Of a DNA stretch of 59,061 nt, positions 3,169-50,916 are shown piece by piece. The translations under genes were made by a program, and so were the position numbers. The DNA comes from a virus (lineage: Duplodnaviria; Caudoviricetes), in IMG/VR virus record IMGVR_UViG_3300007963_000007, positions 1 through 59,061 of that record, one strand, 5' to 3'. Every line of letters begins with the position of its first letter. Position 1 is the stretch's first letter. Below the pieces are notes generated by a model. It was not told the DNA's origin. It worked only from the letters and a program-made list of their open reading frames with translations, and did not search any database.

Positions 3169-3190
3169 CAACCACCACCTGAATACCACC

Positions 3191-3706: not shown

Positions 3707-3716
3707 GTTAACCATC

Positions 3717-3986: not shown

Positions 3987-4016
3987 TCCTGAACCCCTCA
4001 CCATCCAACTCCTACC

Positions 4017-4538: not shown

Positions 4539-4540
4539 CC

Positions 4541-14085: not shown

Positions 14086-17000
14086 TTACTTATCTATCCT
14101 TTTAAATTCTGGTTGTCTGTAAATGTGGTTCTGTAGGAGCATGAATCGGTGCCTTGTGGCACTTTCCTTCATCATAATTTCTTTTGCCCTTGGGGACAGG
14201 ATAATCCTTTGGGAGAACCCAAGAGCAGAGTGCTTGACTCTTTTCTCCCCCACCTGTTTTGTTTTTGCCTCTGAGATGATCTCATCCCACGACAACCCTA
14301 GACTGTGGAACCCCCTGACAACGGTCCCCAATTCATCGTTCAGATTGTGGACTGTGTCGGCAACATCCTCATAAATGCTTATGACTTTCTCGTCCGACAT
14401 AGTTCTTTTGGTGTATGTTCGACTCAGCCTAGACTTAGCGTCTCTTGTTCTTCCGGCGTTGTCTCTTAGGTAAGTCCGCAGGTTAGCCGACAAATCAATC
14501 GGGTAAGGTTTAACAGGAAGGAACTCTTGGAACATGATCCCGAGAGGCCCCCGACCCATTAGTCCTTTTCCTGTGTATGTCCCCTGCATAGCACTTACTG
14601 CCTCTGCTATTTTCTTCGGGGTCCTCAACCCATAAGCCTTGTCTACAATATGCAGCGTCCCCCTCCAGAGTTGTTCGCCATAATCATCCCCACCTTTGAT
14701 GAAGATCGGTTGACCACGATCATCCGTGTTTGTGGCAACGTCCATTATCGCTCCGAATAATATCTGCTCTCCCATGTATCCTTCGGCAACGCCCCCCAAA
14801 ATTGAGGGGACAACTTCGTCCCAATCTCCGGTCACCATATGTTCAACCGCACTACTAGTGGGGTTTGTCACCAAGGAGAACGGGTTAAGGTAGGTGAGAT
14901 CCAGACTGTTATACTTCCCATTTTTATCCTTCCAATAAATCAGTCGGTTGTTCCGAAGGTAAGGAGGTGCGCTCAACCTCAATGCCTCTTCCTCATCGTC
15001 ACTAAGACCTGCCCAGAGACGGTTGATCATGGTAGGCAATACCCCGCTAACAAAGGACAACATAAATGTAGAGTGCGCTACCCTGTTTATGCCCCTGTTC
15101 CTGATCACCTTGTTACCGCTTCTCATTTCTTGGAAACCCAGCTTGTAACTATTGATCATGACTCGCGGAACCTCTGCCGCGAACCGCAAGTAAGGGGAAA
15201 TGGCGATCCCTATCTCACCCCTCGTAAAGCCTGTAACCCATGGGGGCGCTTGACTATACGTTTGAGAAGTCATCTTAACCTTCTCTGCCGCTTTCATTTT
15301 CATTGCGGGGGAGGGTGTGCCGTCTGGTCTAAGTAGTCTGCCGAATTGACCACTGGGGTCTGACTCTGCTGCTTGGACCAACACCCTTAACTCATGCTCA
15401 TACAAACTGATCTTATGGTATGCATCCATGGCAGACGCCATACGAGTCAACAGTCCTAGAGTTGCGTTGTAACCACTTGCTGAAGCGTCCCAACCTTTCT
15501 TAACGACCCCCGTCACACGACCTGCTGGGCTTTGCTTACCCAACTTGTCGATCAGTTTGGTTAACCCCTCTTGCACGGAGAAGTAATCTTTCTTGCCTGA
15601 AAGCAAATCTTGCAGAAGCTGTGCGTCCATCTCATCCCCCCACACATTCATTGCAGCAAGCTCTCTAAGTTCTGCGTTCATCTCAGCACGGGAACCGAAT
15701 GCTGCCCTCCTGATAAGGGAGTCCTCTTTCAGACCTTCAGTAAGACCAAGAACACCCCCGCCTTCTTTGAACATGGCACCTATGCTGCCGTAATGCCCTT
15801 GCATAGGCCCGAAGAACAATGCGTTACCAACGGCATTTCTGAGATAGAAACCCGCAGCACCTAATGTCTTAGATGCCAACGAAAGACCAGTGGCGATTTG
15901 CAAGCCCCTGATAACCCCTGCTGCGACTACTGCTGCCATCTTTCTGGGCTTAACCTTGTCCACAGAAAACATTGCGGTTAGGTTGTCCGCAGCTTCTTTC
16001 GGCATATACATTCCAGAAGCGGGATTCCAATCGGGATGCTCCTCATCACGTAGTTGGACCCACCCCGCATACTTCCTGTCATCAGGTGCCAGTTCTCGAT
16101 CTTTCTTAAACTCTTCGGCAGTAATCATCCAAGGTTCTCGCGTGTCCCCACCGACCCCTGAAAGTCTGGTAGTTTTACTTCTGCCATGGGCGACTACTCG
16201 TTGAAGGAATGCTTGGTTCGACATGATCGAACCTACATTTATAAATGTATGCAGAGCATTATCTAACCCAGCCTCGTCCCCATAGACTCCAAGCAATTGC
16301 TGCAATGGTTCTGGGATATCTTTCTTCTCATCAAAACTAGACAAGATTTCCTTGAGGGGTTTAGCAAGATGCGTATGCCCTTTCATGGTTATGTGCTGCA
16401 CGGAGTCGCCCCCGATATACGCATCCATGCTAGTGTCTAGCTTCATATTCCCGTAGCTATCAATGAAGTCGAGCATCATGTTAGTCCCGATAGTCTTAGC
16501 GTCTGTTCCTTTTGCGTGGAGTGCTTGTTCTGCTTGGTCCAAGGCATCACTTCTACTGATAGAAAGGTCGTTCCGCATAATGTGGTCTGCCTCTTGTTCC
16601 AGATACTGTTGGGCGAAGTAGTTCGCGGCGTCTGTCCTAGCTAAAGCATAGTCGGGGTCTGTCTTAATCGTGTCTGCCCAATCATTATCCTCAAACATAC
16701 GGAACCTGCGGGTGAAATAGATCCCCAAGTTAGTATCGAAGACTGCGTCGATAAGTGTGCTGCCGAAAAGATCCTTAGCCTTTGCCGACATCTCGTCTGT
16801 CAACTTACGTAGGTCCAGAACGATAGTCCATACGTCAGTATCAAGCGCCATCAGATCTTTCAACCCCCTGTCTCGTTTAGCGATCTCTATCTGCCTGTTC
16901 TGCTTTCTGTATTTAAGTGTCTCAGCATCACGGTTATCTTTTGCTATTTGAAGAGCAAGGTCCCTGTCTGCCTTATCAGCAATACCCGATGCTGCTTTGC

Positions 17001-20000
17001 GTTCGTTTTGATACAGGGTATCTACTGCCTCCCTCTGGGAGTCGGACAACATAGACCCCCGTATAGATCCACCTGCTTGCGCTATAAGTTCTGGTGGGAT
17101 GTCGATCCCCCGCTTCTTAGCTGCCTTGACCGCTCTGTCAAACCGGAGCTTATAGTCTTCGGCAGTTTTTTTATTCTCCCTGATGAACGCATCCCGCAAC
17201 TCCATAAACTTGAGGATGGCGGGGTCGGACTCCCCCCTGAAAACTTTCCAGAACAGATTGGGGCTTTTATAAGTCCCAATCTCCATAAGCGGAAGATCAA
17301 GCAGTTCAACAAAGTTACTGTAGTCTACAGAGTCCCCGTCTAATACTGAAGGGATGTCTGATGCTGCCCCGTAACGGGATTGCAACTTTGGGGGGTCAAT
17401 CTTTTTGACTCTATAACGGGATGCCCCGTATTTCATGTCGAGGCGCTCCGCTTTACGACGAGCAAATTTGCGTTTGTCGTAAGCGTAGTCCTTGCCTACC
17501 TGCTCCCCAGTGTGGCTGTCTATAATCTTAAAGACAGATTGACCAAAGTGCTTCCGATGTTCCGCTTCAATTTGAAAGAGTGACCCCCCGCCAACCTTCG
17601 CCATCACATTGGCTCTTTCAGCCTGACGAACTTCTTGCGTCAAATTATCGTATGCGAGTCGGGCTTTCTCTTTCCAGAATGTGCTTTTCTTTAGATCTTC
17701 TTCCGTCCAAAGTGGAACAGTCTCACCCTGATAAGCCTCCGTTGTAAGCGAAGCAGGAACAAGTTCCCCCAGACTACGTTCGTCTTGTGCTGAAAAAGTT
17801 CGCCCAGTTGCGTGGCGAACTAAGAATCTAGCGACATCTTCGGGAGGGTAGGTGAAAGCCGCTCCTCGCAAAACGTCACCTAAGTGCTTTGTCCGCGCCC
17901 CTTCGACCAGTGGCAAACGCGCCCTTGAGAGATTTGCGGCATCAAGTAATTGTTTATCGGCGTTCTCTACGGCGTCTTTGTTTTCTTCCATGAAGACGAA
18001 CCCTTGAGTAACCTCCCCTTCAACAAACTGCTTCGCCGTGAAGTCGTATCTTTTTATAGTAGAGGCATTAAAATGATGGTCCTCTGTAGCGGGGGCAAAC
18101 TGTGGAAGGGGGCCTTCCCAACCAACCTCTTCTAAGTAAGCAATTACTTTATCAAAGTGTGCTTTATCTTCTACGTGGGCTATTTTTGTTACTCCCCCCA
18201 AAACGCGAAGGAAGTCTAACCCGAAATGAAAAGCCTTGAGGTCCGTGTTGGCTAATCGGGGGACCTTCTCCTTGACCCAATCAGGGATGCGGCCAAGAGA
18301 ATAGACAGAATCATATACCTTCCCAGCCATAGATGTGCTGAGTTTATAGAACTTTTCAAAAGGCATATTCCAGAACTGGTATTCCTCACTTAAACCTTGG
18401 ACGCTTTCAGCACTGTCTGCCCCGTAACGGGATTGCAGAATGCTCTTCTTGGTAAGGTTGAACCGCTTCGATGGAGGGATCACGTTCCCTTCTTCATCAC
18501 GAAGAACAACTTCTGCTGATTTAATAATTGCTGACGGACCAGTGACAATCTGGGCGGCTAAAGGTTGGTCAAACCCTCTTGACCCACCAACAGCCTTCTC
18601 GTCCCAAATAGTTCCATAGCCTTCTTCTTCGTAGGTTTTCTGCTGGAACCTGCTATCCATGAAACCACCCTTACCTTCGGTGTATTTTATAGGCCCCGTC
18701 TTAATATACACACGGGTCATGGTTCTCATGGGGCCTAACACGGTGTCCGCAGAAATAGCCTTTAGGAAAGCGTCCGTCTTGGGGGTTTTAAGAGCAGATC
18801 GCCTTATAAGTTCTGAGGTTTCTCCAAACGCTTTTTGGACTTCGTTTTTACTAAGACGCACCATGTCCCTCACCCAAGTGGTGACTTTATAATCAGGTAT
18901 GTCGTTGTCCCAGTTATCTAGCACATAATTATAGTCGCCAGAATTGTATGCATCTATCAGCCTTTTCCCAAAGGCCCCAAACATTGTTTGGCCTTCCGCA
19001 CTACCTACGTTAAAGGTCAAAATATCTTTGGCCCTACTATCCCCAATCTTGGGCGGGGCGGCTCGCCTATTGGTGGTCCGCATATCTTCTCTAGGCAGAA
19101 CAGTAGCTTCCGCATTAGCGTAACCTTGTGACAAAAGGTTGTAGGCAACTAGTTGTCGGATAGCTTCGGGAGCTTTTTTGATTACTTCTACAGTCCTCTT
19201 ATTGGCTTTTTTAGCCTCGTTCTTATCAACCCCTATAGCGGGGGTGCCAGAATAAGTTCCCGCCGTGTCTCGATATTTGGCGGCTACATCTTGATCGAAG
19301 TCTTGCACCCAGAAAGCAATGGGACCAAAAACTTCCCTGCCTTTTTCTAACCCGCCTCTAGCGAAGACTTGCGGGACGCCTTGCTCGTCTAGGTGGAACC
19401 CTAATCTAGCGGCTATTTCCTCAATAACTATTTGGGCAGTCGCCAAGTCACCTGCCGCTACTGCATCTAAGTAGTGGTCATCTACTTCTTCCGCAGTCTG
19501 TCTCTCAGGGAATCCAGTGGGGGTAACCCCCGCAACTGACCCCCCGTAGCGAGACTGAAGTTTTTTCGGGGGTGTTAGTCCTCCCCGACGATCTCCGTCA
19601 GCGTCTCTAGATACTCTTCCTCTTCGCTGGTTAGCGGTGGATTCTCTAAAAGAGACTGCATCATTTCCTCTTTCGTTTCGGAAGACTTCGTTGGCGGCTG
19701 TAGCGTAATCAGGCGCTTCTTCTTGCCCCGACCCGAATTCTTTGTGGACTGCTTTTTCATAATACCAAAGTATCGCTTGCGCTTCCGCAGGGATCATGCG
19801 GACCCCAGTTGAGGATTCTAATTTATCCATCGCGCCCATCATTGCAAGTCTAATAAACCTGCGGTGACCTCCTGAAACTGGGGCTTCAATTAATTCTACC
19901 CCATTATCAAGAACCTTATAAAGAGCATTGGTAGCTTTCCTGAGTTCATCAGTTACAGGAGATGCTTTCTCCATCTTGCCAGAAAACTCAACCCATGAAC

Positions 20001-23000
20001 CTTCGCTCTCGCCCCAGAACATCTGTCTGTGGCTGGGCTTTGTCCAGAACTTGGCTAACCCTATAACAAGGTCCGTGCTTCTTTTGCGTTTACGACCAAG
20101 CCCTGCTTGTTTGAACAACTCCCCTTTCGGGTCCGTTTTAATATACGCCTCTAAAGCTGCATCTACTCTTTTCTTTTTCGCTGCGAATTCCGCACGGGTG
20201 TCCTTCGCTAGTTGCGCCCCTATTGTCCGACCGAAGGTTCTCATGAACCAAAGGTCCATGGTAATGGGATCAAAGTTTCCGTTAAGGTTATGGTGGAACG
20301 AACCTAACTTAGCCCCAAAGACTAGCGCGAACGGAACCGTCTCGTCGATCAACTCCCCTGTAGTTAATTTTTCTGCCTGTGTTTTGGTGTAACCAAAGTC
20401 CACTTGCAGTCTTTCTCTTAGCTCCGCTACGGTTCCTGTGGTAGATAAGAACTCTTCAACGAATTCCCAACCATGTTGGTCCGCCCATTTATCTAGTAGC
20501 TTTAAATGACCATTAATCGCAGACGGTCTTGTGCCTCTCGGCTTTTCATCGTTGAAGAATTTGCCTGTAGCTTTCCACTGCTTATAGATTCTCCAAGAAT
20601 CCTCTGTCTGCTCTTTAACCTTGTTGCCGTTTGATGTGACAGCAAGAAGGGCTTTAAGCACAAAACTATTCTCTGGCTTTTTAATGTCGGGGTCTAGTTC
20701 CTCAAAAATATCGAGGGCCATTTTAACACGCTCCTCATACCAAGAAACAAAGTCAGGGTATTCATACAAAGCACGTTCAAGAACCCCAAGTATCTTACCC
20801 GCAGTTTTTTCGACATCTTCGTAATATGCTGCTTCCTTACCCTTGTCTTTCCAATCTTTCGCCTGACCTCTCCAATTTTTCTTCCAATCAACCCTGTCTT
20901 TAGGGGCGATCTTAGAGTCCAGAAGTTTTGCTAACTCATGGGGTTTACTGCCTAGTATGCCAGAGTCGATATGTTCGACTCCCCTATGCATCGCTTCGTC
21001 TACTTTTGATTGCGCGGCACTTACATTCTCAGAAAACTCAATGTCCCCACCGTAGCGTGTCTGCAATTTCTGCAACGTGGTAGGTGATTCCTGATTCTTG
21101 TCTACTGATTCCCGAAGTCTCTCATGCGCGGGGCGGTCGGATTCTAGTTCAGGGTCTAGTGGGGCGAACACCGCATTCCGTGCGAGGACAGTGAAGTTCT
21201 TAAATGGATTCTTCTCGCCCTGTTCATGCGCTTTGAGATCACTGACCATCATCACTTCGTCCGCAGAAACAAATTTCTGGTCCGTGTTATAAACGTCTGC
21301 CCCTTGGTCATCTTTGGACGCACTATACATATAGTTCCCTTGGGCAGGGTTATATGCCAGAGTACCCCACTCGGAGAGATCTAGGTCACTAATGTCGATA
21401 GCTTCATTGGCAGAGACAAGGTCCCCTGATGGTCCCCCTACTACTGTCTTTGCTCCTTGCGCGTAAACAACAGTTCCTGCTGGGACAATTTGTTTTTTGC
21501 CCAGCAACTCAAGTTCAGGGTTCGTCAGCAACAAATCAGTTTTGCCAATCTTTGCTGCTGCGCGGTTCCTATTAGCTTGTCTGTTAATATTGTCCGCGAC
21601 CTCCTCAAGAGTCATGGCTTCCTCAAGGACATAAGAAGCGGCAGACCCCTTCAAAAAGGTTTCGTATTGGGCGTCCGATAAGTTTACTCCTGCATTAGAC
21701 AAGCGGACGTTAAACGCATTGTATTTCTTGCCTCTAATAGCGACAGAAAAAGGCATTACTCCCAGAGGGTAGCTTTCGTCAAAAGCCTCGTTTTCTGTCC
21801 CGCCCTTTAGCAACCTTTCTCTACTTAGTCTTCCAAGAGTAATATTGGTGTGCGATTTACCAACACGAACTGTCCTCCCTGCTTTGGCGTCTTCTATAAA
21901 CGATTCAGGAAGAGGACTTGCGTTAGTAACAACCGACTTGCCTTCTGCTAGACCCCCCAGTCCTGTATGGTCGGAGGGGACTCCTCCAGCATCGGCACCT
22001 ATTCTAGTTTGTAGTGAGGGGGTCAACACCGCAGGACCTTCACTTTCGTCTTCTTCCTCGTCCCTGCCTTCTACGGACTTGTTCATTTCCAACTGCTTCA
22101 GCAACTGGCGAAGAGTCGCATCAGGATCGGCAGTATCAAAATGCATACCGTTAGGGGAAGTCCGGTAACCCGCTTCCATTGCCCTCATCTCAGTGATCAT
22201 ACGGTTCACTGACTTCCTCATGTAAGGAGGCACTTGCCCACTTACACGATATGTCAACTTACGAAGTTGAGCTTTGAAATACTTCTGGACAGTCTTAATG
22301 AGGGTAGGATTCTCCAAAAGGAAATCTACGTTCTCTTCCGTAGTCGCGCCCCTAAGCACATTCTGTGTGTGCATCCGTAAGCTCTCTTCAACCAAGATGA
22401 ATTTCTCAGCCTCTCTAACTTTGGGGTCGGGGCTGTTCAATCTTTCTACTGCCTCCGCTTGTTCATCTGCTGGGTAGTATTTCTCTATGACCTTCAACGC
22501 TTCTTTGTTGGTCATAGCTGCCATCATGTCGTTGATTTCAGCTTGCGTGAGCGTAGCGAAAGAACTGACATGGGCCATCTCCTCATTAAGAATCTGAGAA
22601 AGTATATGCTCTCTGTTTATTCCTGTCCCCCCAGCTTCGGCTAACTTTTTGTTTAAGAAGATAGCGGCTCGCACACCGTTGATATGGATCGACTGTGTGT
22701 CTAGGTTGAACTCTGCAATGACATCGATACTGTCATCAAATACGACATTTACTTCGTTGGGCAGGAAAGCCGCCGCCCAAGCATAAATCTCTCTGGCGCT
22801 TTCGATTAGTTTTTCCTCTAGTGCGGCTTCCCCCCTGCCCCCGATGCTGGAGGCCAGTGCGTTCCTTCTAGTCTGAGAACCTACAACGCTAGCCGCAACT
22901 GATTCTGCGATAGACCCTCCGGTTACGGGGTCGGTTTGCGTAGCAATATCAAGCACCTTGGCTACGGCTTCACTGTATTGCCTAGATGGGACTCCCATCA

Positions 23001-26000
23001 ATTGCCCTAAGCGTATTAAGATCCTTTGCAACAAATTGCGTGAGCCATCTGGCACCCTGATACCTTTGACGTATTTTTGGAATTTAGGGGATACCAAGAT
23101 GTGAGTTAAAAACTCATCTAGGTTTGACATGGCATAATCAACTAAGCCACTTTGGGGTCCTTTGTTTGCTTCCCTCCTGACTTGTTGGAAAAGTGCTTCA
23201 AGCGCGGCGATTGATTCGTTTTCTTTTGCCGTCCTATTTTTAGGGTCAGTCCGAAGAATCCCAAATGTAATTGCGTGGGTAAGTTCATGCAGGAGAACCC
23301 CCTCAACACCTCCTTCTGCCCGTCGAGCTAAGTTAATAGCTACTTGGGGGGTGCCTGTCGCATCAACTGTATACTCACCAGCAAACGCATGAGTAGACAC
23401 ATCCATAACAAAGTTGATTCTGGAAAGAAGCCCTTTCTTGCTAAGAATAATTTTAGCAACAAGTGCATACATCTTGTTTTTTCCTTTAGAAATTTTCTCT
23501 AAAGCAGAAATAACAGAGTCCATGTTGCCATTCTCTAGACCGAGTGCATCGACTTCTTTCATGTTCCGCTTTATGTTTTGTTTGCGGGACTTGCCATCTA
23601 CAATGGCGCGTGAATGAAATGCTTGAGTAGCTTTCTTAACGTCTTTGAAGAAATCTTTTGCGTTAGTTATGGTGACTTCCACATCTTCCCCCATAATACC
23701 TTGCAAGGATTCTCTGACTAATTCGGCGTAAGACGGGTCAGTATCTGGGGACGCTTCAACTTGGGGGGCTGAGATGCCAAGAATCTTGAGCGTCTTTCTA
23801 AGAGGGGCAGCGTTTGTATACGCTCCAGCTTTCAGTTCCAATTGAAACTGGAGGGCAGACTTATTAGATGAAGTCGCCCCAGTAACAAAGTAGGCTACTA
23901 GTTCGTCAAAGACTTGCTCTGGTGTTTTTTTGTCTGCGTTCCCTTCTGCGTCTTGGTAAACCGTTGCATTAAGGAGCATTTTAGCTGCCCCCAACAATTC
24001 AGGATCTCCTTCTAATGCTGCTGCTGCGCCTGTGTGCAGGTCTTGGATAAACCCTTCCAATGTAGCTTGCGATGGGGGGCGCATAGGGTTGAGTCGTGGC
24101 GGGACGTAGGTGTCGTCTCTGCCATTCTCTTCTGGGTTGTATGTCTCCTCAGAAGTGTGAAGGTCTGTGTCAGGTTCAAGCAAACTGACAAAACTTCTCT
24201 TAGCCCGTTTTGCTCTTTGGAATTGTTGTCTCTGGAAGAACTGTCCATGTCTGTCCTTTGTTTCAAGGATAGATATAATATTGGAGTCGGTATCCGAATC
24301 TGCTGATTTAGCCGAATACTCGTAAACGGCTTTTTGAATCTCTAACTGCAAAGCTACGGCGGTAGCTTCCACAAAATCTTTATTAAGGTTTAAAGATTCA
24401 TCCGAAGCGACGGCCCCACGAAGGAGTTCTATGTTGCTAGCCTTCTTGAGCAACCCCGCTAGAGTTATTTGTCTACTTGGTCTGAACGGGTCGGTAACTT
24501 TAACTTTGCCGTTGAAAGGTTTTGCCGCTTCTTTCGCGGCTTTAACTTGTTGGGCTAGTTCTGTGAAAACAGAGTAGTCTTCTTCTAACGCGCCGACTTT
24601 GTTAAAGGCAGTCTTTGCGGAAACCAGCCCCCCAGATTCACGGACCATAATGTCCGATACAAAAAACTGGTCGCCTACTTGTTCAAACCTAAACGATGGA
24701 TTAGTTGTGTCGGCGTTGACTATTTCTTCCGTAACGGGGACAGCCACATTACTCTCAAGTAGAGTGAGCATACCTGCTGGGTCATTGTTAAACACCCCAT
24801 GCCCCTTTGAATTTACAAAAACAAAGCTGGCTACGCCTCCATACACAGACGGGACTTTAGCCCCGCCAGCAGGTTTCGTTTTTCTTAAAACAGGAAACCT
24901 CTCCCTAATTTTTTTTGCCAATGTCTGCGTTAACACGGCTAGCGATGCATTGTCCGTCTCTGCAACAGCAACACCTAAGTCTTCAAGTTGGCTAACTTCT
25001 AAAGAATGTGGGAAGCCTCCTTCAACTAAACTTTCAATAGCTTCTTCTGCTTCTTTAGAAGGGCCTTTCTTTTCAGCTTCTCTAAGGGCCGCAATATCCC
25101 TATTGAATGTTTCTAACAAAGTTCTTTTTACTGCCTCACCTTGCTCTGGGGACATAACCCTGCCCGACTCGACAGCTTCACGTATGCTTCGTCTGAGCCT
25201 ATCTGCGGCGGCACCTTCTGGGGTTTCTTGAAGTTGCCTTTCCAGTTGCCTAAATAGTTTAACACGCTTCTCTACGCCTTTTAGGTTTAGTGTGTAGGCA
25301 ACTTTTAAATCAATTTTAACCTGCTTGGCAGAGTGCTGGGACGTTACTCGTCCTGCACCATTGGTGTCCCCCTCGCTTTCAGTTAGGAGTTGAGTAGCTG
25401 CCGAAGAACTAGCAGTTTCCAGATCAACAGAACTTTTTGTTTTCTTCCTAGCCGACTCGGTGTTTACTGCCTCCTCTACTGTTTCTTTAGGGATGTTTTT
25501 CATCCCTTCTTCAATCGAGTCCGCTTCCGCTTTTACATCTTCGGGGGAAAGTTTCTCTAAGGTTTCGTCCGCTTCTTCTTCTTCGGTTAGTGTAGTGCCA
25601 TCGGTTTCTTCGGCTCTTTTATACCTCCTAATAATACGCTCCGCTTCCTTAGCCGTAGTAGGCGCACCCGCCCTTTTGAGTTGCCCCGTCAAACCCTTCG
25701 CTTCGACATCTTTTTCGTATTGCTCGAAAAGGCTTTTCTCAAATCTTGCTGCCGCCGCCTGATCAAGGAACATACGGGGGGCAACATTCTTTGCCGTCCT
25801 CCCAATAAAGGTTGACCCCGCGCCCATCAGCCCCCCTAACAAGGCGGCGTGGAAAACCCCCTGCATTCTTTCAAGGAAAGGAGTGTCTTCGTCTGTAGCG
25901 GCATCAATAATGAAAGAGTTTAATAGTTCATCTAACCCTTCTTCGTATGCCTCATCAGCAAAATTTCTCAGGTAACTCTTGGGGGCGTCAATAAAATGCT

Positions 26001-28413
26001 TACGTATAGCCTTCTTAATAGACCTTTTGAATACTTCTTTAAACGCTTCGTTTCCAACATTACGTCCTAATACAGCAGACGTAATCCTTTTAATTTGACG
26101 GAAGGACATATTCCGTAGCAAGGCGTCTTCAACCCCGCCACGACCAATCATGGACATACCAGAAGTAAGGATGCCTGTCATAAGCCCTGCTTTTAAACCT
26201 GCTCCTAGCGCGGCATCATGGGCTTCGGCTTTAACTCTCTCTTCACTCCAGCCCTCTTCCCAAGTGCCATCTTCGTTTTGGTGGCGGGATTTCAGGTCGT
26301 CCTCAATATGTTTAAAGACTGTCCCGTAAGTCCCTCCTGCCGACCTGTTGGCAGCAGGTAAAAACACAGCAGGGGCCATGGCAATCTTCTTGGTAAGTCC
26401 GCTATTGTATGCCCTGATGACTGCATTAGCTTGATCAAGATCACCTACGATTTCTTTCTTGAACAAGTCTTTAGCTCGTTTTTCAAAAGATTCTTTGCCC
26501 GTAACTCTAAGGCTTCCTCTGAACGCTGCCGCTATAATTTGTCTCGCCGCGACAGTAGCACTAGTCTTTGCCCCTACATAACCAACTGCTGCGGCACCAG
26601 TAGCCCCAAACGTGGGGGCGGCGGCTGCGGCTAACAAACCAGTAACGCCCATGTCCAGCATTACGGGGGCAATCATCTCTAATGCGTCTTGGCCAAGACC
26701 AAACTTGTCGCCAAACAACCTGCCCATTTCTCGTTGGTGGGCTTTCTCTGACGCAGTTTTAAGCAAACCTTGTTGACCCCACTCGGCACCTGACATAGCG
26801 GCGATGCCGTGGACGATACCCAAAACACCTTCATCCCAAATACTGCGCCCCAACCCTTCCATGCTTTCAGAAAACTTATTCCAGTTCGCTTCGTCAGTTG
26901 TGAACTGTTCTAAAATTTCTCTGTTTGAAATACCTTGTTGACGACCAGTGACAACGGCTTGCGACCACTTGTCCCCAAGATCTTTATCTTTAGAAATTAT
27001 ATCGTTATAAGTATCAAACGATGCCTCAACTTCAATTTGGCGTAGTTGTTCTAAAGCCTCTTGTGTTTTGGAATCTACCAAAGCGGCGTCCAATGCATTG
27101 GCATGGAGGTCGGGTCGGGCTTTAAGTTCCTGTGCTACTGTGGGGAGCTTGTAGGTCCCGTAATGCACGTTAAGCCACTGATCGTCCTCGTTCTCATGGT
27201 ATACATACCACCCTTCTGGCTTCTCGTCGTGTAGTTCTCCAGTGCCTACTTTGGCTTTACCATTGTCGAGAGTTAATTGATCGGCCACATCTTCCAAGAC
27301 ATCGCGGCTGTAATCTAATTTCGCACCTAAATCCGCAATAAGACTATCTCTAGTGTTAGAGAAATTATCCGCATAAGTTTCTTGTAGAAACTCCGCTTCT
27401 TCCATAGCACGAATTGCTTCGTCTTGCCCCCCAAAAATTTTTGCTAGAAGCTGACCTCCAGATTCATACACATCAGCACTAGCAGTGCCAACATTATCCC
27501 AGAAACCATACTTAGAACGCGCTTTACTCTCCGTCAAAGCGTCGAGCATAATAGATAAATGCCTATTCTCCGACACTTGATGCATAGGCCCTATTAACCG
27601 ATCTTGTTTTATCAGTTCGATTGCTTCGGCTTCTGCGATGTATCGCTGCTGAATTTCCCAGTATTTTAGCAAAGTGTTTTTGTTAGTGTATAACGACTCA
27701 GAATACTCGGGAATACGATTGTTGAATTTTATATTAAAGAAATGCTGCGGTCTTACTCCGTAGTCACTGGACTCCTTGATAACATCGGCAATCGTTTTGC
27801 CTTCTGGAATCCTGCCTCCTAATAGGCGAGGCTTACCATCTTCATAAACAACAGCCGCATTAATCTCGCCCCTGTTAAAAAGTTTAGTCCTTTGGTCTGT
27901 CTCAGCGCGTTGCAGAACCTCTCTTACAAGCCCAGTCTTTACCTCAACTTCTGTAGGACCTACTTCCGTCTCGTCTTGCTCGTAAGTCCCCGCTTGAATT
28001 CTAGCGGACAAATCCAAGAAGTCGTCAATTTTCCCTACGTCTTTCCTAGTTAAAGGACTCTTATCATTTTTGTTGAGCCACCCTAATTCATGAGCCGCTT
28101 TGATTCTTTCGGCCCGTTCGTAATCACTAATCCTGTCTAAGTTTTGGATTTGTGAAGCTACTTCATCCCTATTTTCTTCTGTGAGATACCCATGCCCCGA
28201 TAAGTAACTAACTAAATCACCACCGATACGGTCCTCTGCTTCTTCATTGTAAAGCCCCGCCTCCATGTGGGCTATGCGAACATGATCCATGTATCGTGCT
28301 ACTTGCTCGATGGGGTCCTCAAAAACATTGTTCTGAGTCCAAACTTCAAACGGAGTCACTTTAGGACTCCGGTTATCTCCAGTGGTAGGGTCGGGTATGC
28401 TTTGGTCTGACAT
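14086..28413 (-). CDS. Giant (4775 aa) polyvalent protein, probably internal virion/ejected
   Basis: Uninterrupted ORF in the late operon. Contains a zincin motif LLHELTH, a degenerate EEMAH, an HhH-glycosylase-like module (AKLGSF..NL...TMDLWFMR...AQAILW), an ART-PolyVal-like module (YLDAVAAGD...IKSAEVVLRDEEGNVIPPSKRFN) and an LPD38-like C-terminus. Confidence 0.8.
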   Translation of the reverse strand: MSDQSIPDPTTGDNRSPKVTPFEVWTQNNVFEDPIEQVARYMDHVRIAHMEAGLYNEEAEDRIGGDLVSYLSGHGYLTEENRDEVASQIQNLDRISDYERAERIKAAHELGWLNKNDKSPLTRKDVGKIDDFLDLSARIQAGTYEQDETEVGPTEVEVKTGLVREVLQRAETDQRTKLFNRGEINAAVVYEDGKPRLLGGRIPEGKTIADVIKESSDYGVRPQHFFNIKFNNRIPEYSESLYTNKNTLLKYWEIQQRYIAEAEAIELIKQDRLIGPMHQVSENRHLSIMLDALTESKARSKYGFWDNVGTASADVYESGGQLLAKIFGGQDEAIRAMEEAEFLQETYADNFSNTRDSLIADLGAKLDYSRDVLEDVADQLTLDNGKAKVGTGELHDEKPEGWYVYHENEDDQWLNVHYGTYKLPTVAQELKARPDLHANALDAALVDSKTQEALEQLRQIEVEASFDTYNDIISKDKDLGDKWSQAVVTGRQQGISNREILEQFTTDEANWNKFSESMEGLGRSIWDEGVLGIVHGIAAMSGAEWGQQGLLKTASEKAHQREMGRLFGDKFGLGQDALEMIAPVMLDMGVTGLLAAAAAPTFGATGAAAVGYVGAKTSATVAARQIIAAAFRGSLRVTGKESFEKRAKDLFKKEIVGDLDQANAVIRAYNSGLTKKIAMAPAVFLPAANRSAGGTYGTVFKHIEDDLKSRHQNEDGTWEEGWSEERVKAEAHDAALGAGLKAGLMTGILTSGMSMIGRGGVEDALLRNMSFRQIKRITSAVLGRNVGNEAFKEVFKRSIKKAIRKHFIDAPKSYLRNFADEAYEEGLDELLNSFIIDAATDEDTPFLERMQGVFHAALLGGLMGAGSTFIGRTAKNVAPRMFLDQAAAARFEKSLFEQYEKDVEAKGLTGQLKRAGAPTTAKEAERIIRRYKRAEETDGTTLTEEEEADETLEKLSPEDVKAEADSIEEGMKNIPKETVEEAVNTESARKKTKSSVDLETASSSAATQLLTESEGDTNGAGRVTSQHSAKQVKIDLKVAYTLNLKGVEKRVKLFRQLERQLQETPEGAAADRLRRSIREAVESGRVMSPEQGEAVKRTLLETFNRDIAALREAEKKGPSKEAEEAIESLVEGGFPHSLEVSQLEDLGVAVAETDNASLAVLTQTLAKKIRERFPVLRKTKPAGGAKVPSVYGGVASFVFVNSKGHGVFNNDPAGMLTLLESNVAVPVTEEIVNADTTNPSFRFEQVGDQFFVSDIMVRESGGLVSAKTAFNKVGALEEDYSVFTELAQQVKAAKEAAKPFNGKVKVTDPFRPSRQITLAGLLKKASNIELLRGAVASDESLNLNKDFVEATAVALQLEIQKAVYEYSAKSADSDTDSNIISILETKDRHGQFFQRQQFQRAKRAKRSFVSLLEPDTDLHTSEETYNPEENGRDDTYVPPRLNPMRPPSQATLEGFIQDLHTGAAAALEGDPELLGAAKMLLNATVYQDAEGNADKKTPEQVFDELVAYFVTGATSSNKSALQFQLELKAGAYTNAAPLRKTLKILGISAPQVEASPDTDPSYAELVRESLQGIMGEDVEVTITNAKDFFKDVKKATQAFHSRAIVDGKSRKQNIKRNMKEVDALGLENGNMDSVISALEKISKGKNKMYALVAKIILSKKGLLSRINFVMDVSTHAFAGEYTVDATGTPQVAINLARRAEGGVEGVLLHELTHAITFGILRTDPKNRTAKENESIAALEALFQQVRREANKGPQSGLVDYAMSNLDEFLTHILVSPKFQKYVKGIRVPDGSRNLLQRILIRLGQLMGVPSRQYSEAVAKVLDIATQTDPVTGGSIAESVAASVVGSQTRRNALASSIGGRGEAALEEKLIESAREIYAWAAAFLPNEVNVVFDDSIDVIAEFNLDTQSIHINGVRAAIFLNKKLAEAGGTGINREHILSQILNEEMAHVSSFATLTQAEINDMMAAMTNKEALKVIEKYYPADEQAEAVERLNSPDPKVREAEKFILVEESLRMHTQNVLRGATTEENVDFLLENPTLIKTVQKYFKAQLRKLTYRVSGQVPPYMRKSVNRMITEMRAMEAGYRTSPNGMHFDTADPDATLRQLLKQLEMNKSVEGRDEEEDESEGPAVLTPSLQTRIGADAGGVPSDHTGLGGLAEGKSVVTNASPLPESFIEDAKAGRTVRVGKSHTNITLGRLSRERLLKGGTENEAFDESYPLGVMPFSVAIRGKKYNAFNVRLSNAGVNLSDAQYETFLKGSAASYVLEEAMTLEEVADNINRQANRNRAAAKIGKTDLLLTNPELELLGKKQIVPAGTVVYAQGAKTVVGGPSGDLVSANEAIDISDLDLSEWGTLAYNPAQGNYMYSASKDDQGADVYNTDQKFVSADEVMMVSDLKAHEQGEKNPFKNFTVLARNAVFAPLDPELESDRPAHERLRESVDKNQESPTTLQKLQTRYGGDIEFSENVSAAQSKVDEAMHRGVEHIDSGILGSKPHELAKLLDSKIAPKDRVDWKKNWRGQAKDWKDKGKEAAYYEDVEKTAGKILGVLERALYEYPDFVSWYEERVKMALDIFEELDPDIKKPENSFVLKALLAVTSNGNKVKEQTEDSWRIYKQWKATGKFFNDEKPRGTRPSAINGHLKLLDKWADQHGWEFVEEFLSTTGTVAELRERLQVDFGYTKTQAEKLTTGELIDETVPFALVFGAKLGSFHHNLNGNFDPITMDLWFMRTFGRTIGAQLAKDTRAEFAAKKKRVDAALEAYIKTDPKGELFKQAGLGRKRKRSTDLVIGLAKFWTKPSHRQMFWGESEGSWVEFSGKMEKASPVTDELRKATNALYKVLDNGVELIEAPVSGGHRRFIRLAMMGAMDKLESSTGVRMIPAEAQAILWYYEKAVHKEFGSGQEEAPDYATAANEVFRNERGNDAVSFRESTANQRRGRVSRDADGDRRGGLTPPKKLQSRYGGSVAGVTPTGFPERQTAEEVDDHYLDAVAAGDLATAQIVIEEIAARLGFHLDEQGVPQVFARGGLEKGREVFGPIAFWVQDFDQDVAAKYRDTAGTYSGTPAIGVDKNEAKKANKRTVEVIKKAPEAIRQLVAYNLLSQGYANAEATVLPREDMRTTNRRAAPPKIGDSRAKDILTFNVGSAEGQTMFGAFGKRLIDAYNSGDYNYVLDNWDNDIPDYKVTTWVRDMVRLSKNEVQKAFGETSELIRRSALKTPKTDAFLKAISADTVLGPMRTMTRVYIKTGPIKYTEGKGGFMDSRFQQKTYEEEGYGTIWDEKAVGGSRGFDQPLAAQIVTGPSAIIKSAEVVLRDEEGNVIPPSKRFNLTKKSILQSRYGADSAESVQGLSEEYQFWNMPFEKFYKLSTSMAGKVYDSVYSLGRIPDWVKEKVPRLANTDLKAFHFGLDFLRVLGGVTKIAHVEDKAHFDKVIAYLEEVGWEGPLPQFAPATEDHHFNASTIKRYDFTAKQFVEGEVTQGFVFMEENKDAVENADKQLLDAANLSRARLPLVEGARTKHLGDVLRGAAFTYPPEDVARFLVRHATGRTFSAQDERSLGELVPASLTTEAYQGETVPLWTEEDLKKSTFWKEKARLAYDNLTQEVRQAERANVMAKVGGGSLFQIEAEHRKHFGQSVFKIIDSHTGEQVGKDYAYDKRKFARRKAERLDMKYGASRYRVKKIDPPKLQSRYGAASDIPSVLDGDSVDYSNFVELLDLPLMEIGTYKSPNLFWKVFRGESDPAILKFMELRDAFIRENKKTAEDYKLRFDRAVKAAKKRGIDIPPELIAQAGGSIRGSMLSDSQREAVDTLYQNERKAASGIADKADRDLALQIAKDNRDAETLKYRKQNRQIEIAKRDRGLKDLMALDTDVWTIVLDLRKLTDEMSAKAKDLFGSTLIDAVFDTNLGIYFTRRFRMFEDNDWADTIKTDPDYALARTDAANYFAQQYLEQEADHIMRNDLSISRSDALDQAEQALHAKGTDAKTIGTNMMLDFIDSYGNMKLDTSMDAYIGGDSVQHITMKGHTHLAKPLKEILSSFDEKKDIPEPLQQLLGVYGDEAGLDNALHTFINVGSIMSNQAFLQRVVAHGRSKTTRLSGVGGDTREPWMITAEEFKKDRELAPDDRKYAGWVQLRDEEHPDWNPASGMYMPKEAADNLTAMFSVDKVKPRKMAAVVAAGVIRGLQIATGLSLASKTLGAAGFYLRNAVGNALFFGPMQGHYGSIGAMFKEGGGVLGLTEGLKEDSLIRRAAFGSRAEMNAELRELAAMNVWGDEMDAQLLQDLLSGKKDYFSVQEGLTKLIDKLGKQSPAGRVTGVVKKGWDASASGYNATLGLLTRMASAMDAYHKISLYEHELRVLVQAAESDPSGQFGRLLRPDGTPSPAMKMKAAEKVKMTSQTYSQAPPWVTGFTRGEIGIAISPYLRFAAEVPRVMINSYKLGFQEMRSGNKVIRNRGINRVAHSTFMLSFVSGVLPTMINRLWAGLSDDEEEALRLSAPPYLRNNRLIYWKDKNGKYNSLDLTYLNPFSLVTNPTSSAVEHMVTGDWDEVVPSILGGVAEGYMGEQILFGAIMDVATNTDDRGQPIFIKGGDDYGEQLWRGTLHIVDKAYGLRTPKKIAEAVSAMQGTYTGKGLMGRGPLGIMFQEFLPVKPYPIDLSANLRTYLRDNAGRTRDAKSRLSRTYTKRTMSDEKVISIYEDVADTVHNLNDELGTVVRGFHSLGLSWDEIISEAKTKQVGEKRVKHSALGFSQRIILSPRAKEIMMKESATRHRFMLLQNHIYRQPEFKRIDK

Positions 28414-28442: not shown

Positions 28443-29552
28443 TTATTTAGGGAAGAAGTCAGGGGCGTCTAGTCTCAGATATTCCTGTTTTTCCTTTTCA
28501 GTAAGCGTGCCGTCACCATCAGCATCGGCATCAGGATGCTCTAGCAAAAACTCGGCCAGTTTTTCTTCTGCTGTAGGACCAGCGGTGGGGGGTTTGGGAA
28601 GCCATGTTGGTGTGGGCGCTTCGCCCGACAATCTTTGGCGTTCTGTATTTTGAAGTTCAATCAATCGGGCCTTAGCCGCAAGCGGGGTTGTAATGACATC
28701 ACCTGCTTCATCTTTAATTTTAAGGGCGCGAACTTGAGGTTCGTAACTCCTCCAACTAGGCGTGTCTGTAACAGGGGAGCCTCGGTCCGTCCCTCCCGAT
28801 GTTGTAACTACGGGGTTTTCAAGCATGTCGTCTAGGATAGATATATGAGCTTGATGCCCTGCTATATTGCTCTCAACTTGGTCTTTTAGAGCCTGTTGCT
28901 TCATTTTGGCGAGTTGTAGATCCCTATCCTGCTTTGTAGCTTCCGCACTTGCTGCCCGTGCTTTGTCCATCTTTTTAGCCAAGTTCAGAACAATCCTTTC
29001 TTGTGACGTTAAAGTTCCGTCCTCCCTAGCAATCTTCAGCAAACCCGCATACGGTGTTCCCGCCTGTGCAGCAGCAAAGAGTTTACCAGCATGGTCATCC
29101 AAAGACTTGATCTGCTTGGCTTCCGTATTGAGTTTTTCAAGAGAAGCCATGAACGCAGTATTCGCGGCTGGGTTATTGGTAAGCAAGTCTGGGTTCTTCA
29201 TCGCCCACTCGTTAGCTAGTTTGGTCCGTTCAAATACGGAAACCAACGCACCTTCATCATCCGTTTGGTTGACGATACCATCTAGGTCCTTAGTTGCTTC
29301 TTCCGTCCTGCCCATGAATGCAACACGCTTTTTCTCGTCTGTAACTTTCTTGCCCAGATCAAACTGTGCAGTCTCAAATGCTAAATTCATCGAGGACTCA
29401 CGCGACAACTGAGTCCGCAACTTGATCATCTTATCAAGTTGTGGGTCTACTTGGGCCTGTTCAAACGCTCCAATATTACTGGACTCTGATCTGGATAAGA
29501 ATCCGTAATTATTACGTAAAGGCGCTATATTGTCGTCGAAGAATTCGCTCAT
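28443..29552 (-). CDS. Probable internal virion protein with C-terminal EF-hand-like loop
   Basis: Helical, A/K-rich, upstream of the giant gene; DADADGDGTLTEKE near the C-terminus. Confidence 0.55.
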   Translation of the reverse strand: MSEFFDDNIAPLRNNYGFLSRSESSNIGAFEQAQVDPQLDKMIKLRTQLSRESSMNLAFETAQFDLGKKVTDEKKRVAFMGRTEEATKDLDGIVNQTDDEGALVSVFERTKLANEWAMKNPDLLTNNPAANTAFMASLEKLNTEAKQIKSLDDHAGKLFAAAQAGTPYAGLLKIAREDGTLTSQERIVLNLAKKMDKARAASAEATKQDRDLQLAKMKQQALKDQVESNIAGHQAHISILDDMLENPVVTTSGGTDRGSPVTDTPSWRSYEPQVRALKIKDEAGDVITTPLAAKARLIELQNTERQRLSGEAPTPTWLPKPPTAGPTAEEKLAEFLLEHPDADADGDGTLTEKEKQEYLRLDAPDFFPK

Positions 29553-29560
29553 CAGTATGA

Positions 29561-30157
29561 CTAGTTTTTCTTACCGAAGAGAGCCTTCCACCACTTTGGC
29601 TTTTCAGCGGCATCGGGGATTGGGTTAGCTATCAACCTATCCATCAACCTTCGATTCACATCTCTCGCCTTCTTTGCATCTGCCGCTACTTGCTCCCTCT
29701 CAGCCATATAAGCGGGGGTGGCTATTGAAGGGGCAGACGCTTCTGGGGACCTTGCCCAATCTGCTGCTGCTTGCTCGGCGGCTCGGGTGAAACCTTTCTT
29801 GCGGAGCATTATAGCTTGCCTCAATTTTTTTCTTCTGGTGTGTTTTTCTTTCCCACCAGCAGGTCTAGCTAAACCCGGACCCTGACGCTTTTCCACCCAT
29901 TCACGATCCTTCTGCCTTTCTTCTTCTTCTTTTTTGCGTCTGATTGTCTCTCTGTCCGCTTTGCCGTAAGCTGATTGGAACTGCTCATCTGTGATGCCTA
30001 GCTTTCCGGCTTCTTTGCCAAACTGCGTAAACGCTTTAGGATCAACCTCCATGGGGTCGTCTGAATACGATAGCTTACTAGGGTCATATCTCCCAGAAGC
30101 AGACTCTAGCATTCGGTCGTAAAGTGCCTGTCGTTCTTTTACGTTTTTGTCTGCCAT
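29561..30157 (-). CDS. Hypothetical (possible internal virion) protein
   Basis: First gene after its own promoter; charged helical sequence. Confidence 0.55.
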   Translation of the reverse strand: MADKNVKERQALYDRMLESASGRYDPSKLSYSDDPMEVDPKAFTQFGKEAGKLGITDEQFQSAYGKADRETIRRKKEEEERQKDREWVEKRQGPGLARPAGGKEKHTRRKKLRQAIMLRKKGFTRAAEQAAADWARSPEASAPSIATPAYMAEREQVAADAKKARDVNRRLMDRLIANPIPDAAEKPKWWKALFGKKN

Positions 30158-30165: not shown

Positions 30166-30194
30166 AATATAGTGGTTTGTATTTATAAAGTCAA
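30166..30194 (-). promoter_or_regulatory. Sigma70-like promoter for the giant-protein operon
   Basis: TTGACT-N17-TATATT; ATG 8 nt downstream. Confidence 0.7.
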
Positions 30195-31978
30195 TCCGCT
30201 AGAGTGGCTTCAGAATTCTGTAACGCTTGCCGTAAAGTATTCATTGATTTTCTCTTCCTGAACTTTGACCCATCCAGTTCTTCGGGGGGGTCCACAGCCA
30301 CCAGACCTAAGCGTTGTCGGGCGCAATCAAGAGCCAAGAAAGCAGCATCAGCGAGATCAGGGCTGCGCCCGAATCGTGCTTTAAACTCAGGCTTGGATTC
30401 TATTTTCATGCGTAAAGTAGAACTCTTTACCATGTCGTAATTTCTAGCCGTTATTTCTTGGGCTAAATCTGAGGTGACACCAAACACTTGACGGGTCCTC
30501 ATCAGTTCTTTTCCGACAAACCACAACTCGGACACTCTATTTACATAGAGTTCATGACCTACTAATTGACTATTAACGCTGACCCTCTTGTCACTTGCCT
30601 TCCCGCCGAAACCAATCCTCATAATTTTACCAGACCATTCTCCAGAGAGGACATCGCAAAAAGGCGCACCTGCACCAGTGGCATCCACAGCTACGTTCTC
30701 GGGCAGGATTTTCAATTGTTTACACTTGTCCTTAATCTGCCGCACAATTTGATAAGTGCGGGGGACTGCTTTATTTGTGGCGTCATCGTTCAAGTGGATA
30801 GCGTCCCCAAACTCTAGAACATACTGCCCAGAAACATCGTAACCACACTTAGCGGTATACATGATAGTCCTATCTCCACCATTAGTGAAAGCGGGGTCTA
30901 TGCCACATAGGTTAATCGGGCTACCTTGCCACTCGACATTACCAAGCGCCCCGCTACTGGTTAACTCGTTCTCGGTGTATATGCCCGTAGTCTCATCACT
31001 ATCGAAAAATACTGCACGGACCATCCTCATATAACCCCTGCTCTCTACTCCAAGTAGGGCTTTGTCTTCATTTAATTTTTCTTCGGTAGGTAGCCACGGA
31101 TAAAGTGTCTCTCCTGCTAAAATGTTGGGGGATCTCTCCCCGTCTAACCGTAGGTAATACCCGTTCCACTTTGTCTTCCATTCGTCCGCAGTATTAGTAT
31201 CGACACTTTCCCACCCATCTGCGGGGGTGGACCAAATCCCAAAAGCATCAAATCTAGAATTCGGGTTGGACATACCAATGAGTTGGAACTCTGGGTTCTT
31301 TGAAAGGTTCGTCAGTCCAGCTTGAAGAATTGCTTCAGAAAGTTCTGATAGCTCATCTCCAATCAAAATTATACGCTTCTGTTTAATGCCGATAAATTTA
31401 CCTACAGCCTCCTTGGTTTTCGACTTCTCGGCTGAAATAAGCGAAAGTCCCGCCCTTTCTATAAGAAGACCGCTTTCGTTTATATAAGCTGCGTTCCCGA
31501 TAGAGTCCCTGATTTTAATGGGGGCGTTGTCAATGACTGACAAAAGAGACATGACAGACCCCCAAATTCGTTTCCGTGCCTCTCTTAAAGTAGTAGAGGT
31601 CATAAGAACAAGAGTGTCTTGTGGTTGACTTAGCCAATTAACAATGCCCCAAGCTGCCATGGTGTGACTCTTTCCAGATGAAGCACTACCTCCTATAGCT
31701 AGGTATTTATTTTCTAGGGCCGCACGAATCATCTTTTCCGCCCAAGGATGCTTAACCATTAATTTTTCAGGGAGATCTTCCCTGTTCCACAACTCGTCAC
31801 ACAGTCTCCAGAAATAATATTCTTTAGCGAGGACCTCTTCGTGTTTGGCGAACCCATAAAGGAGGGCTGTTAAAAGACTGGTCGGGGGAATCAGAAACCC
31901 ACCCACATCCATTTTTTTAGATTTAGGGTCTATTCTGGGTTCCAGTAACTGCTTGCTCCTCTCAGCCTTTAAAGCCAT
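30191..31978 (-). CDS. terL: Terminase large subunit
   Basis: Walker A GGSASSGKS, Walker B IILIGDE, MSNP coupling motif, nuclease GIDPAF..GGD, VDATG and SPDLADA; ATG at 31978 preferred. Confidence 0.9.
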   Translation of the reverse strand: MALKAERSKQLLEPRIDPKSKKMDVGGFLIPPTSLLTALLYGFAKHEEVLAKEYYFWRLCDELWNREDLPEKLMVKHPWAEKMIRAALENKYLAIGGSASSGKSHTMAAWGIVNWLSQPQDTLVLMTSTTLREARKRIWGSVMSLLSVIDNAPIKIRDSIGNAAYINESGLLIERAGLSLISAEKSKTKEAVGKFIGIKQKRIILIGDELSELSEAILQAGLTNLSKNPEFQLIGMSNPNSRFDAFGIWSTPADGWESVDTNTADEWKTKWNGYYLRLDGERSPNILAGETLYPWLPTEEKLNEDKALLGVESRGYMRMVRAVFFDSDETTGIYTENELTSSGALGNVEWQGSPINLCGIDPAFTNGGDRTIMYTAKCGYDVSGQYVLEFGDAIHLNDDATNKAVPRTYQIVRQIKDKCKQLKILPENVAVDATGAGAPFCDVLSGEWSGKIMRIGFGGKASDKRVSVNSQLVGHELYVNRVSELWFVGKELMRTRQVFGVTSDLAQEITARNYDMVKSSTLRMKIESKPEFKARFGRSPDLADAAFLALDCARQRLGLVAVDPPEELDGSKFRKRKSMNTLRQALQNSEATLAD

Positions 31979-32006
31979 ATTAATTAATATCGATAACACC
32001 TAGATT

Positions 32007-41850: not shown

Positions 41851-41867
41851 ATGCGAGGGGGTTAGTG

Positions 41868-44238: not shown

Positions 44239-44244
44239 TTACTA

Positions 44245-50915: not shown

Positions 50916-50916
50916 A

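Follow-up and report, generated by a model that had tools for sequence, protein, structure and literature searches.

A virus record in IMG/VR, IMGVR_UViG_3300007963_000007 (Duplodnaviria; Caudoviricetes), encodes a giant protein of 4775 residues in which a six-residue motif, LQ(S/T)R(Y/I)G, stands five times, and the question that this locus raises is what the repeated motif is for. The DNA analysed, hereafter the window, is the whole record of 59,061 bp, with a CheckV completeness of 98%, that is, complete or nearly so. An earlier note made from the letters of this DNA had proposed that the motifs divide an injected polyprotein into effector-sized cassettes, each motif being a protease cleavage site, a junction for module swapping, or both. 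Comparison of the protein with its relatives indicates that the motif, which we call the junction word, is the joint where cassettes are gained, lost and re-ordered. The likeliest further role, a proposition that we hold to be evenly poised, is that the chain's own peptidase recognises the word and there parts the scaffold, the cassettes and the C-terminal domain (C-domain) from one another.

We scanned the translated frame with a regular expression and recovered all five motifs, at residue and nucleotide numbers identical to those in the earlier note (Table 1). Five copies of LQ[ST]R[YI]G compare with 0.0006 expected analytically from the protein's own composition. When a looser pattern was run over the six frames of the record, it returned the same five sites and one match in a frame of 27 codons, and the word was found in none of the other real frames of the phage. 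The modules between the motifs measure 316, 502, 374 and 351 aa and share no similarity with one another at E<=1e-5, so that the description of them as four unrelated modules holds. As we read it, the chain would consist of a scaffold of 2133 aa ending in two tandem zincin-like domains, four unrelated cassettes (modules A to D), and a C-domain of 1099 aa, and each cassette as well as the C-domain would open with L-Q-S/T-R-(hydrophobic)-G-(A/G) behind a linker rich in proline and acidic residues.

We then compared the protein with relatives that came from a word-indexed search, from three scans of IMG/VR, and from 1.84 billion representatives scanned in full with HMMER; the C-domain has 1246 representative relatives at E<=1e-3. 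An N-terminal scaffold of about 2100 aa, collinear among the relatives, and a C-domain of about 1100 aa are common to them, and the content between the two is variable, amounting to 0 to 4 modules in differing sets and orders. Alignments of single modules run from residue 1 of the motif up to the next motif. Module A aligns with L005 at 49% identity (residues 1-315 against 1-303), and module B with P0003 at 68% identity (1-497 against 1-499) and also with P0007. The order of modules is A-B here and in L021, and B-A in L012 and L013; L007 and L019 have A but no B, and L018, L024, and L040 have B but no A. Other cassettes found in relatives include modules of 190 and 343 aa and a DUF7178 module of about 715 aa. 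At one extreme stand cargo-free relatives of 3265-3517 aa (L014, L015, L029, L030, L031, L046, and also L017, L020, L022, L036, L037), natural 'empty vector' forms in which the scaffold is joined to the C-domain through a linker of 4-23 residues. At the other, six of the 106 mapped relatives (P0042, P0053, P0088, P0091, P0105, P0117) consist of the C-domain alone, measure 1057-1122 aa, and begin 2-33 residues past the motif position. Pseudoalteromonas phage vB_Pun_Y3 had been considered as a clean gene split at the junction and was set aside, its 1027-aa protein aligning only from C-domain profile position 228. Among homologues, then, the motif is kept while the content, number, and order of the modules vary.

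Inspection of the nucleotide sequence gave a further view of how one cassette arrived. A perfect 21-nt direct repeat lies at 17364-17384 and 18417-18437, with a spacing of 1053 nt that equals 351 codons and the length of module D. It was the sole perfect direct repeat (>=14 nt) reported within 17000-22300, and it points to recombination inside the junction word as the way in which module D arrived or was homogenised. With alignments that end at the motifs, modules re-ordered in relatives, and a repeat that exactly brackets module D, the proposal of a junction for module swapping is well supported.

The same repeat speaks for the main alternative, in which the word is a recombination joint or linker and nothing else, each insertion duplicating the junction sequence and the protein working as an uncut chain. 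Cassette content and order that vary between relatives suit this alternative, and so does the probable ancestry of the word as the N-terminus of the C-domain (see below), since a duplicated insertion point would copy it. However, three of the five copies differ at synonymous and flanking positions while the six residues stay the same. Such differing codons, together with the variable flanking linker, indicate that selection acts on the peptide of the junction word.

Of 239 unique proteins, 104 were mappable at either end, and in these we examined whether the word is confined to the junctions, and how it varies. In 23 of them, all 57 matches of the pattern L[QE][ST][RQK].G lay in the junction zone, with 0 in scaffold or C-domain; 5 matches in total came from the remaining 81. 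All junctions of a protein share one variant, and homologous modules carry other variants in other lineages. The variant is LQSRxG in this phage and its nearest relatives, LETRxG in P0037, L012, and L013 (four sites each), LESRFG in P0040, L024, and L040, and LESQFG in P0007, P0008, and others; homologues of module B alone appear behind LQTRYG, LQSRIG, or LESQFG, depending on the lineage. In an unbiased test, the heptad at the C-domain junction of each protein was matched to the rest of the chain, and its best match fell in the cargo zone, not in the larger remainder, for 29 of the 42 cargo-bearing relatives. This test also brought out further private words, namely [LI]ATQFGA, VGTSFGD, LYSAP[TV]A, and SASRF[GA]. 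A word that changes in step across the junctions of a chain, and that never occurs in the approximately 3200 aa outside the cargo zone, argues against a mere joint. On balance, and with the association of the word with a peptidase-like site that is described below, we regard the alternative of a joint in an uncut chain as somewhat unlikely.

Cargo-free relatives point to the origin of the word. Where their scaffold meets the C-domain, a Pro/Gln/Thr linker is followed by T-[EG]-S-Q-F-[GS]-x-D-S-K-[IL]-P. Because these proteins keep a related sequence at this join, comparison indicates that the junction word is the native N-terminus of the C-domain, copied before each cassette.

The context of the word was determined in 55 unique junctions from 28 proteins. 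Proline occupies position -2 in 29 of the 55, and over the 15 residues upstream of the word proline is enriched (10.9% vs 3.4%) and aromatic residues are depleted (2.4% vs 7.9%). Position 5 is mostly hydrophobic (F 26, Y 9, I 6, W 5, V 4, L 2), with His and Gln also present; position 7 is A or S in 48 junctions, and 40 have D or G at position 8.

At position 2, 27 junctions have Q and 28 have E, which bears on a second alternative, that another protease, from phage head maturation or from the host, cuts the word after the Gln or Glu at this position. Proteases specific for Gln or Glu tolerate the interchange of the two, and T4-type prohead proteases cut after Glu. That head proteases of large phages process packaged ejection proteins, as described in the parts of the SPN3US paper covered here, also counts for it. 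Against it, the word stands in no other frame of the phage, so that capsid and scaffold proteins would not be co-substrates, and words that are specific to a lineage would need a partner evolving along with them, more readily an enzyme encoded by the phage than one of the host. No protease family was recognised in 20 other open reading frames (ORFs) of the phage scanned with PHROGs, 10 of which were also scanned with Pfam; this absence says little, since capsid and portal went unrecognised there as well. We consider cleavage by such a protease improbable.

We also looked at where the motifs lie relative to folded domains, using two AlphaFold2 models built from alignments of 48 and 61 rows. Motif 1 is centred in a stretch of 47 residues (model residues 551-597) with a predicted local distance difference test score (pLDDT) below 50. 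Motif 3 is centred in low-confidence model residues 503-536 (34 residues), which follow a domain with pLDDT above 90. Motif 2 falls at the model ends, where confidence is low regardless. At the two junctions modelled, the motifs sit in low-confidence linkers.

A third alternative draws on this location. The word could be a docking or signal peptide that binds a common partner, such as the portal, core, a chaperone, or a channel, for packaging or ejection of an uncut protein. It is short and linear, its context is disordered, and each module, like the C-domain, carries it at the N-terminal edge, all of which would suit such a role. No partner candidate has emerged, however. The stand-alone C-domain proteins lack the word, which is therefore unneeded for the C-domain's own function, and its co-loss with a peptidase-like site points to catalysis instead. 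We find a docking role very improbable.

The peptidase itself was sought in the scaffold. The earlier note had placed a zincin with the motif HELTH upstream of the cassettes in the same chain, and this was substantiated in several ways. HELTH is flanked by a conserved downstream glutamate, and residues H1709, E1710, H1713, and E1767 (N-L-D-E-F) were invariant in 14 of 14 close relatives. AlphaFold2 gave this first domain a topology of strands (model residues 108-135), a helix (143-162), and a further helix (206-215), with pLDDT about 90. When the N-terminal scaffold was searched by tblastn, residues 1681-1792 matched virion RNA polymerases of N4-like Acinetobacter phages (E 1e-6), and a profile of the zincin region matched the 'Internal virion protein' 9sfn_G (E 3e-10) and PhiM1 gp48, 8vb2_A (E 2.3e-8). 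In the terms of Iyer et al. 2017 (PMC5512222), this is the zincin-like MPTase domain. The region found no relative when used as a single-sequence query for related loci; an alignment was needed to find them.

A second, diverged zincin-like domain follows about 230 residues further on, and hhalign placed it in register with the first, its E-E-x-x-H under H-E-x-x-H (P 5.9e-4). We compared the state of this second site (site 2) with the presence of the repeated junction word. Among the 29 rows with HExxH at the first site (site 1), site 2 is intact in 21, and the repeated word was present in 16 of 16 of these that were testable. Taken the other way round, 16 of 16 relatives of this HExxH clade with a repeated word have kept site 2. 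Site 2 is degenerate in nine rows (L014, L015, L017, L020, L030, L031, L033, L035, L046), seven of them cargo-free and two with cargo but without the repeated word. A quick IQ-TREE maximum-likelihood tree, for which the columns of site 2 were left in, requires three or more independent changes to account for the degeneration. Loss of the second zincin-like site exclusively where the repeated word is absent counts against a joint alone. Since the sample is small and its members are related, and since there are counter-examples, we take this co-loss as a lead and not as proof.

On the basis of these comparisons, we propose the following mechanism. The word would be the lineage's version of a family-wide junction word, originally the N-terminus of the C-domain, which serves as the joint for cassette exchange. 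The metallopeptidase of the chain would cut at the word, in the capsid or after ejection, and so yield the scaffold, the cassettes, and the C-domain. Thermolysin-type enzymes usually prefer to cut before a hydrophobic residue, and a zincin cut would be expected just before the hydrophobic fifth residue of the word (R|Y). What favours self-cleavage is the specificity of the word, its concerted variants, its position in linkers, the invariant peptidase residues, the co-loss of site 2, and the existence of stand-alone C-domains.

Several observations weigh against self-cleavage. All of the support for it is comparative, and cleavage itself we infer. The perfect 21-nt repeat around module D belongs here, since duplication of a junction by recombination alone can make identical words, and the low pLDDT at the junctions may stem partly from the thin alignment there. 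P0007 and P0008 are without the junction word at their first junction. According to Iyer et al. (2017, PMC5512222, in the parts covered here), the virion RNA polymerase of coliphage N4, whose HExxH domain is homologous, is packaged without being processed, a report that equally supports a joint in an uncut chain. A paper on N4 gp50 (PMC13434306) notes the HExxH motif, and its matching passages do not mention proteolysis. A Foldseek search of the zincin/module A model against the PDB gave no match at E<=1e-3; the non-significant rows, at E 0.08-0.9, included N4 gp50, zinc peptidases, and the PhiM1 ejectosome. Five cargo-free relatives (L036, L057, L069, L070, L074) retain site 2. Site 1 is likewise retained in the cargo-free relatives L014, L015, L030, L031, and L046, and, being kept without any cargo, must have another or an additional role. 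Finally, in a sister clade of 18 of the 48 rows (L038, L041-L043, L045, L047-L049, L052, L053, L057, L060, L062, L064, L069, L070, L073, L074), site 1 reads E-E-x-x-H (LLEEYVHAF), which is not a canonical zinc site; this clade keeps the downstream N-x-D-E-F, and four of its rows have H-E-x-x-H at site 2. It is with these points counted that the reading of the word as both cleavage site and exchange joint, the likeliest of those considered, stands evenly poised. A bolder version appears unlikely: that this is a self-processing polyprotein of a double-stranded DNA phage with a private, evolvable code, in which the heptad of each lineage co-evolves with a dedicated, non-canonical E-E-x-x-H zincin-like domain that stands directly ahead of junction 1 and releases the cassettes, the domain decays when cassettes or code are lost, and new cargo is inserted behind a copy of the word.

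The features of the giant gene are collected in Table 1.

Table 1. Positions of the giant gene, its domains, motifs and modules, and the terminase gene in the window
Feature	Residues (aa)	Position (nt)	Strand	Basis or remark
Giant gene	4775 codons plus stop	14086..28413	-	single uninterrupted frame (translation)
Conserved N-terminal scaffold	1-2133	22015..28413	-	collinear across relatives
Hydrophobic Gly/Ala-rich segment	577-611	26581..26685	-	candidate membrane-inserting (sequence)
Further hydrophobic Gly/Ala-rich segments	852-871, 4159-4180, 4445-4463		-	candidate membrane-inserting
Zincin-like domain 1, core	about 1659-1784	23062..23439	-	three strands, HELTH helix, Glu1767 helix (NLDEF); pLDDT about 90
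HELTH	1709-1713	23275..23289	-	single HExxH of the chain (regular expression)
NEEMAH	1943-1948	22570..22587	-	E-E-x-x-H of the second, diverged zincin-like domain (about aa 1889-1980)
Junction motif 1, LQTRIG	2134	21997..22014	-	regular-expression scan; middle of a 47-residue low-pLDDT stretch
Junction motif 2, LQTRYG	2450	21049..21066	-	regular-expression scan
Junction motif 3, LQSRYG	2952	19543..19560	-	regular-expression scan; middle of a 34-residue low-pLDDT stretch
Junction motif 4, LQSRYG	3326	18421..18438	-	regular-expression scan
Junction motif 5, LQSRYG	3677	17368..17385	-	N-terminus of the conserved C-terminal domain
Module A	2134-2449	21067..22014	-	beta-rich; full-length homologues in L007/L023, L019, L021, L012, L013
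Module B	2450-2951	19561..21066	-	confidently modelled mostly/all-alpha domain, widespread in phage polyvalent proteins, unnamed
Module C	2952-3325	18439..19560	-	orphan core framed by helix YLDAVAAGDLATAQ and tail IIKSAE..GNVIPPSKRFN
Module D	3326-3676	17386..18438	-	orphan; bracketed by a perfect 21-nt direct repeat
Conserved C-terminal domain	3677-4775	14089..17385	-	1099 aa
Large terminase		30191..31999	-	two genes upstream of the giant gene; late-operon context

The identities of the modules were then examined. Module B had been called HhH-glycosylase-like, and this could not be upheld. It has no Pfam match and no PDB sequence match, and its AlphaFold2 model, with pLDDT above 90 over about 480 residues, found no PDB fold at E<=1e-3; the 50 matches listed do not include an HhH glycosylase. 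It is homologous instead to an unnamed domain of ART-PolyVal/LPD38 polyvalent proteins (E 3e-25) and is present in at least 235 IMG/VR stretches. Against BFVD the model gave 15 matches at E<=1e-3, which are pieces of polyvalent proteins of uncultured phages.

Module C, which the earlier note took for ART-PolyVal-like and which may be so, has the helix Y-L-D-A-V-A-A-G-D-L-A-T-A-Q at its start and I-I-K-S-A-E...G-N-V-I-P-P-S-K-R-F-N at its end. A tail of this type closes, in 20 of 24 other family proteins, a module that is recognised by a locally iterated ART-PolyVal profile. In module C itself, this local profile matched the C-terminal strand and tail alone (E 0.004 among 4 sequences), and a 'framed module' profile, whose regular expressions were partly drawn from module C, matched the N-terminal helix and tail alone. 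The core was recognised neither by Pfam (PF18760, no match at E<=1) nor by the local profile, and a search of module C against PDB sequences gave nothing meaningful. Modules C and D had no relatives in the ESM Atlas or in the word-indexed searches of giant and shorter proteins, which returned at most the query itself.

The ART-like modules of many family members (P0058, P0069, P0081, P0111, and others) end in ...QIKSA..D..GNVIPLSQRFD, followed by S-I-L-[YR]-S or D-I-R-[YF]-S. At the same place in the protein studied here (residues 3312-3331) stands K-K-S-I-L-Q-S-R-Y-G. LQSRYG may be related to a wider junction word of polyvalent proteins, '[ILV]-[LR]-[YFQ]-S'.

The remainder of the gene and its neighbourhood offered few matches to catalogued families. 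Pfam and PHROGs assigned 0 families to the whole giant protein, and Pfam run on 8 segments of it gave none at gathering score, including no catalogued polyvalent-protein domain (ART-PolyVal or the LPD families). The whole protein had no match in the PDB, and the gene had none by megablast among 50,697 phage records; the family has no known cultured member. The C-domain matched a PHROG annotated 'virion structural protein' weakly (E 2.6e-7); its profile gave nothing significant against the PDB and Pfam, and haemagglutinin HA2 rows (E about 0.07) were dismissed as chance coiled-coil matches. In the structural block (40000-57936 on the minus strand and 28443-30157), PHROGs recognised just a tail-fibre protein (46968-49049) and a 'virion structural protein' (46015-46971), and neither PHROGs nor Pfam identified capsid, portal, or scaffold genes of the phage. 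The giant protein contains 0 cysteines in all its 4775 residues, and eleven relatives contain 0-2. On the basis of its homology to solved ejection proteins, the PHROG match, the late position after the terminase, the hydrophobic segments, and the lack of cysteine, it is probably a virion-carried ejection protein of the polyvalent kind. Its place among phage polyvalent and ejection proteins is in keeping with the four mutually unrelated modules set between scaffold and C-domain, and with an HExxH domain homologous to that of ejection proteins.

The idea that zincins process polyvalent proteins is already in print (Iyer et al. 2017), where the products are proposed to be separate anti-host effectors. 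No defined cut site for polyvalent or ejection proteins was found in the parts of the literature covered here, whose supplementary alignments might show such linkers, and a full-text search with six variants of the junction word found nothing. This family of giant proteins thus provides a candidate cut site of six residues, and exact places at which the proposal of 2017 can be tested. It also supplies natural controls in the cargo-free relatives, the stand-alone C-domains, and three losses of the peptidase-like site, as well as a link to solved ejection proteins. If the chain is indeed cut, the motif and the peptidase would account for the delivery of several enzymes by podoviruses by way of a single ejection protein. 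They would also provide a rule by which the ends of cargo could be located in uncultured phages by the thousand, and with them new orphan effectors of the kind of modules A, C, and D. If it is not cut, the family would still be a clear case of a protein rebuilt domain by domain at a reusable joint.

Among known systems, the solved ejection proteins PhiM1 gp48 (8vb2; PMC11440229) and 9sfn_G resemble the giant protein in the HExxH...NxxEF segment; the late-gene position, Gly-rich hydrophobic segments, and lack of cysteine of the giant protein fit an ejected protein. They differ in being about 1260-1340 aa long and without cargo cassettes, and the likeness is limited to about 120-150 residues: the homology, though significant, lies within the HExxH domain alone (profile positions 147-286 of 592), and the remainder was unmatched. 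The PhiM1 paper, in the text covered here, contains no mention of metallo, HExxH, or proteoly, and its two mentions of zinc concern nanoparticles. Virions of phi24B contain a large polyvalent protein with a metallopeptidase domain, detected by mass spectrometry (bioRxiv 10.64898/2026.04.10.717836, in the part covered), which may or may not be a relative of the giant protein.

Coliphage N4 offers a second comparison. According to the passages covered of PMC13434306, the C-terminal part of its gp50, a giant ejected protein, comprises an HExxH subdomain and, behind it, about 1100 aa that form a helical domain of unknown fold, and the cargo-free relatives of the giant protein have the same layout as this part. 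The C-domain profile did not match N4 gp50. The T7-like single-subunit polymerase domain that N4-like virion RNA polymerases have in mid-chain was not found: the profile of residues 1000-1600 had no PDB match at E<=1, and phrog_414 reached only E 0.0076. N4 gp50 has no cassettes and is reported to be unprocessed, whereas the giant protein carries four.

The closest parallel is with the phage-type polyvalent proteins described by Iyer, Burroughs, Anand, de Souza, and Aravind (2017, J Bacteriol, PMC5512222), in which a zincin-like metallopeptidase domain is a hub and for which, in the parts covered here, autoproteolytic release of domains is put forward as a hypothesis. Like them, the giant protein has many domains, an HExxH with a downstream Glu, and more than one metallopeptidase-like copy, and it shares module B with the ART-PolyVal/LPD38 proteins; unlike them, it has no detectable Pfam polyvalent domain. 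Whereas that paper, in the same parts, names no cleavage site, the giant protein presents a six-residue word at every junction, variable between lineages and traceable to the C-domain.

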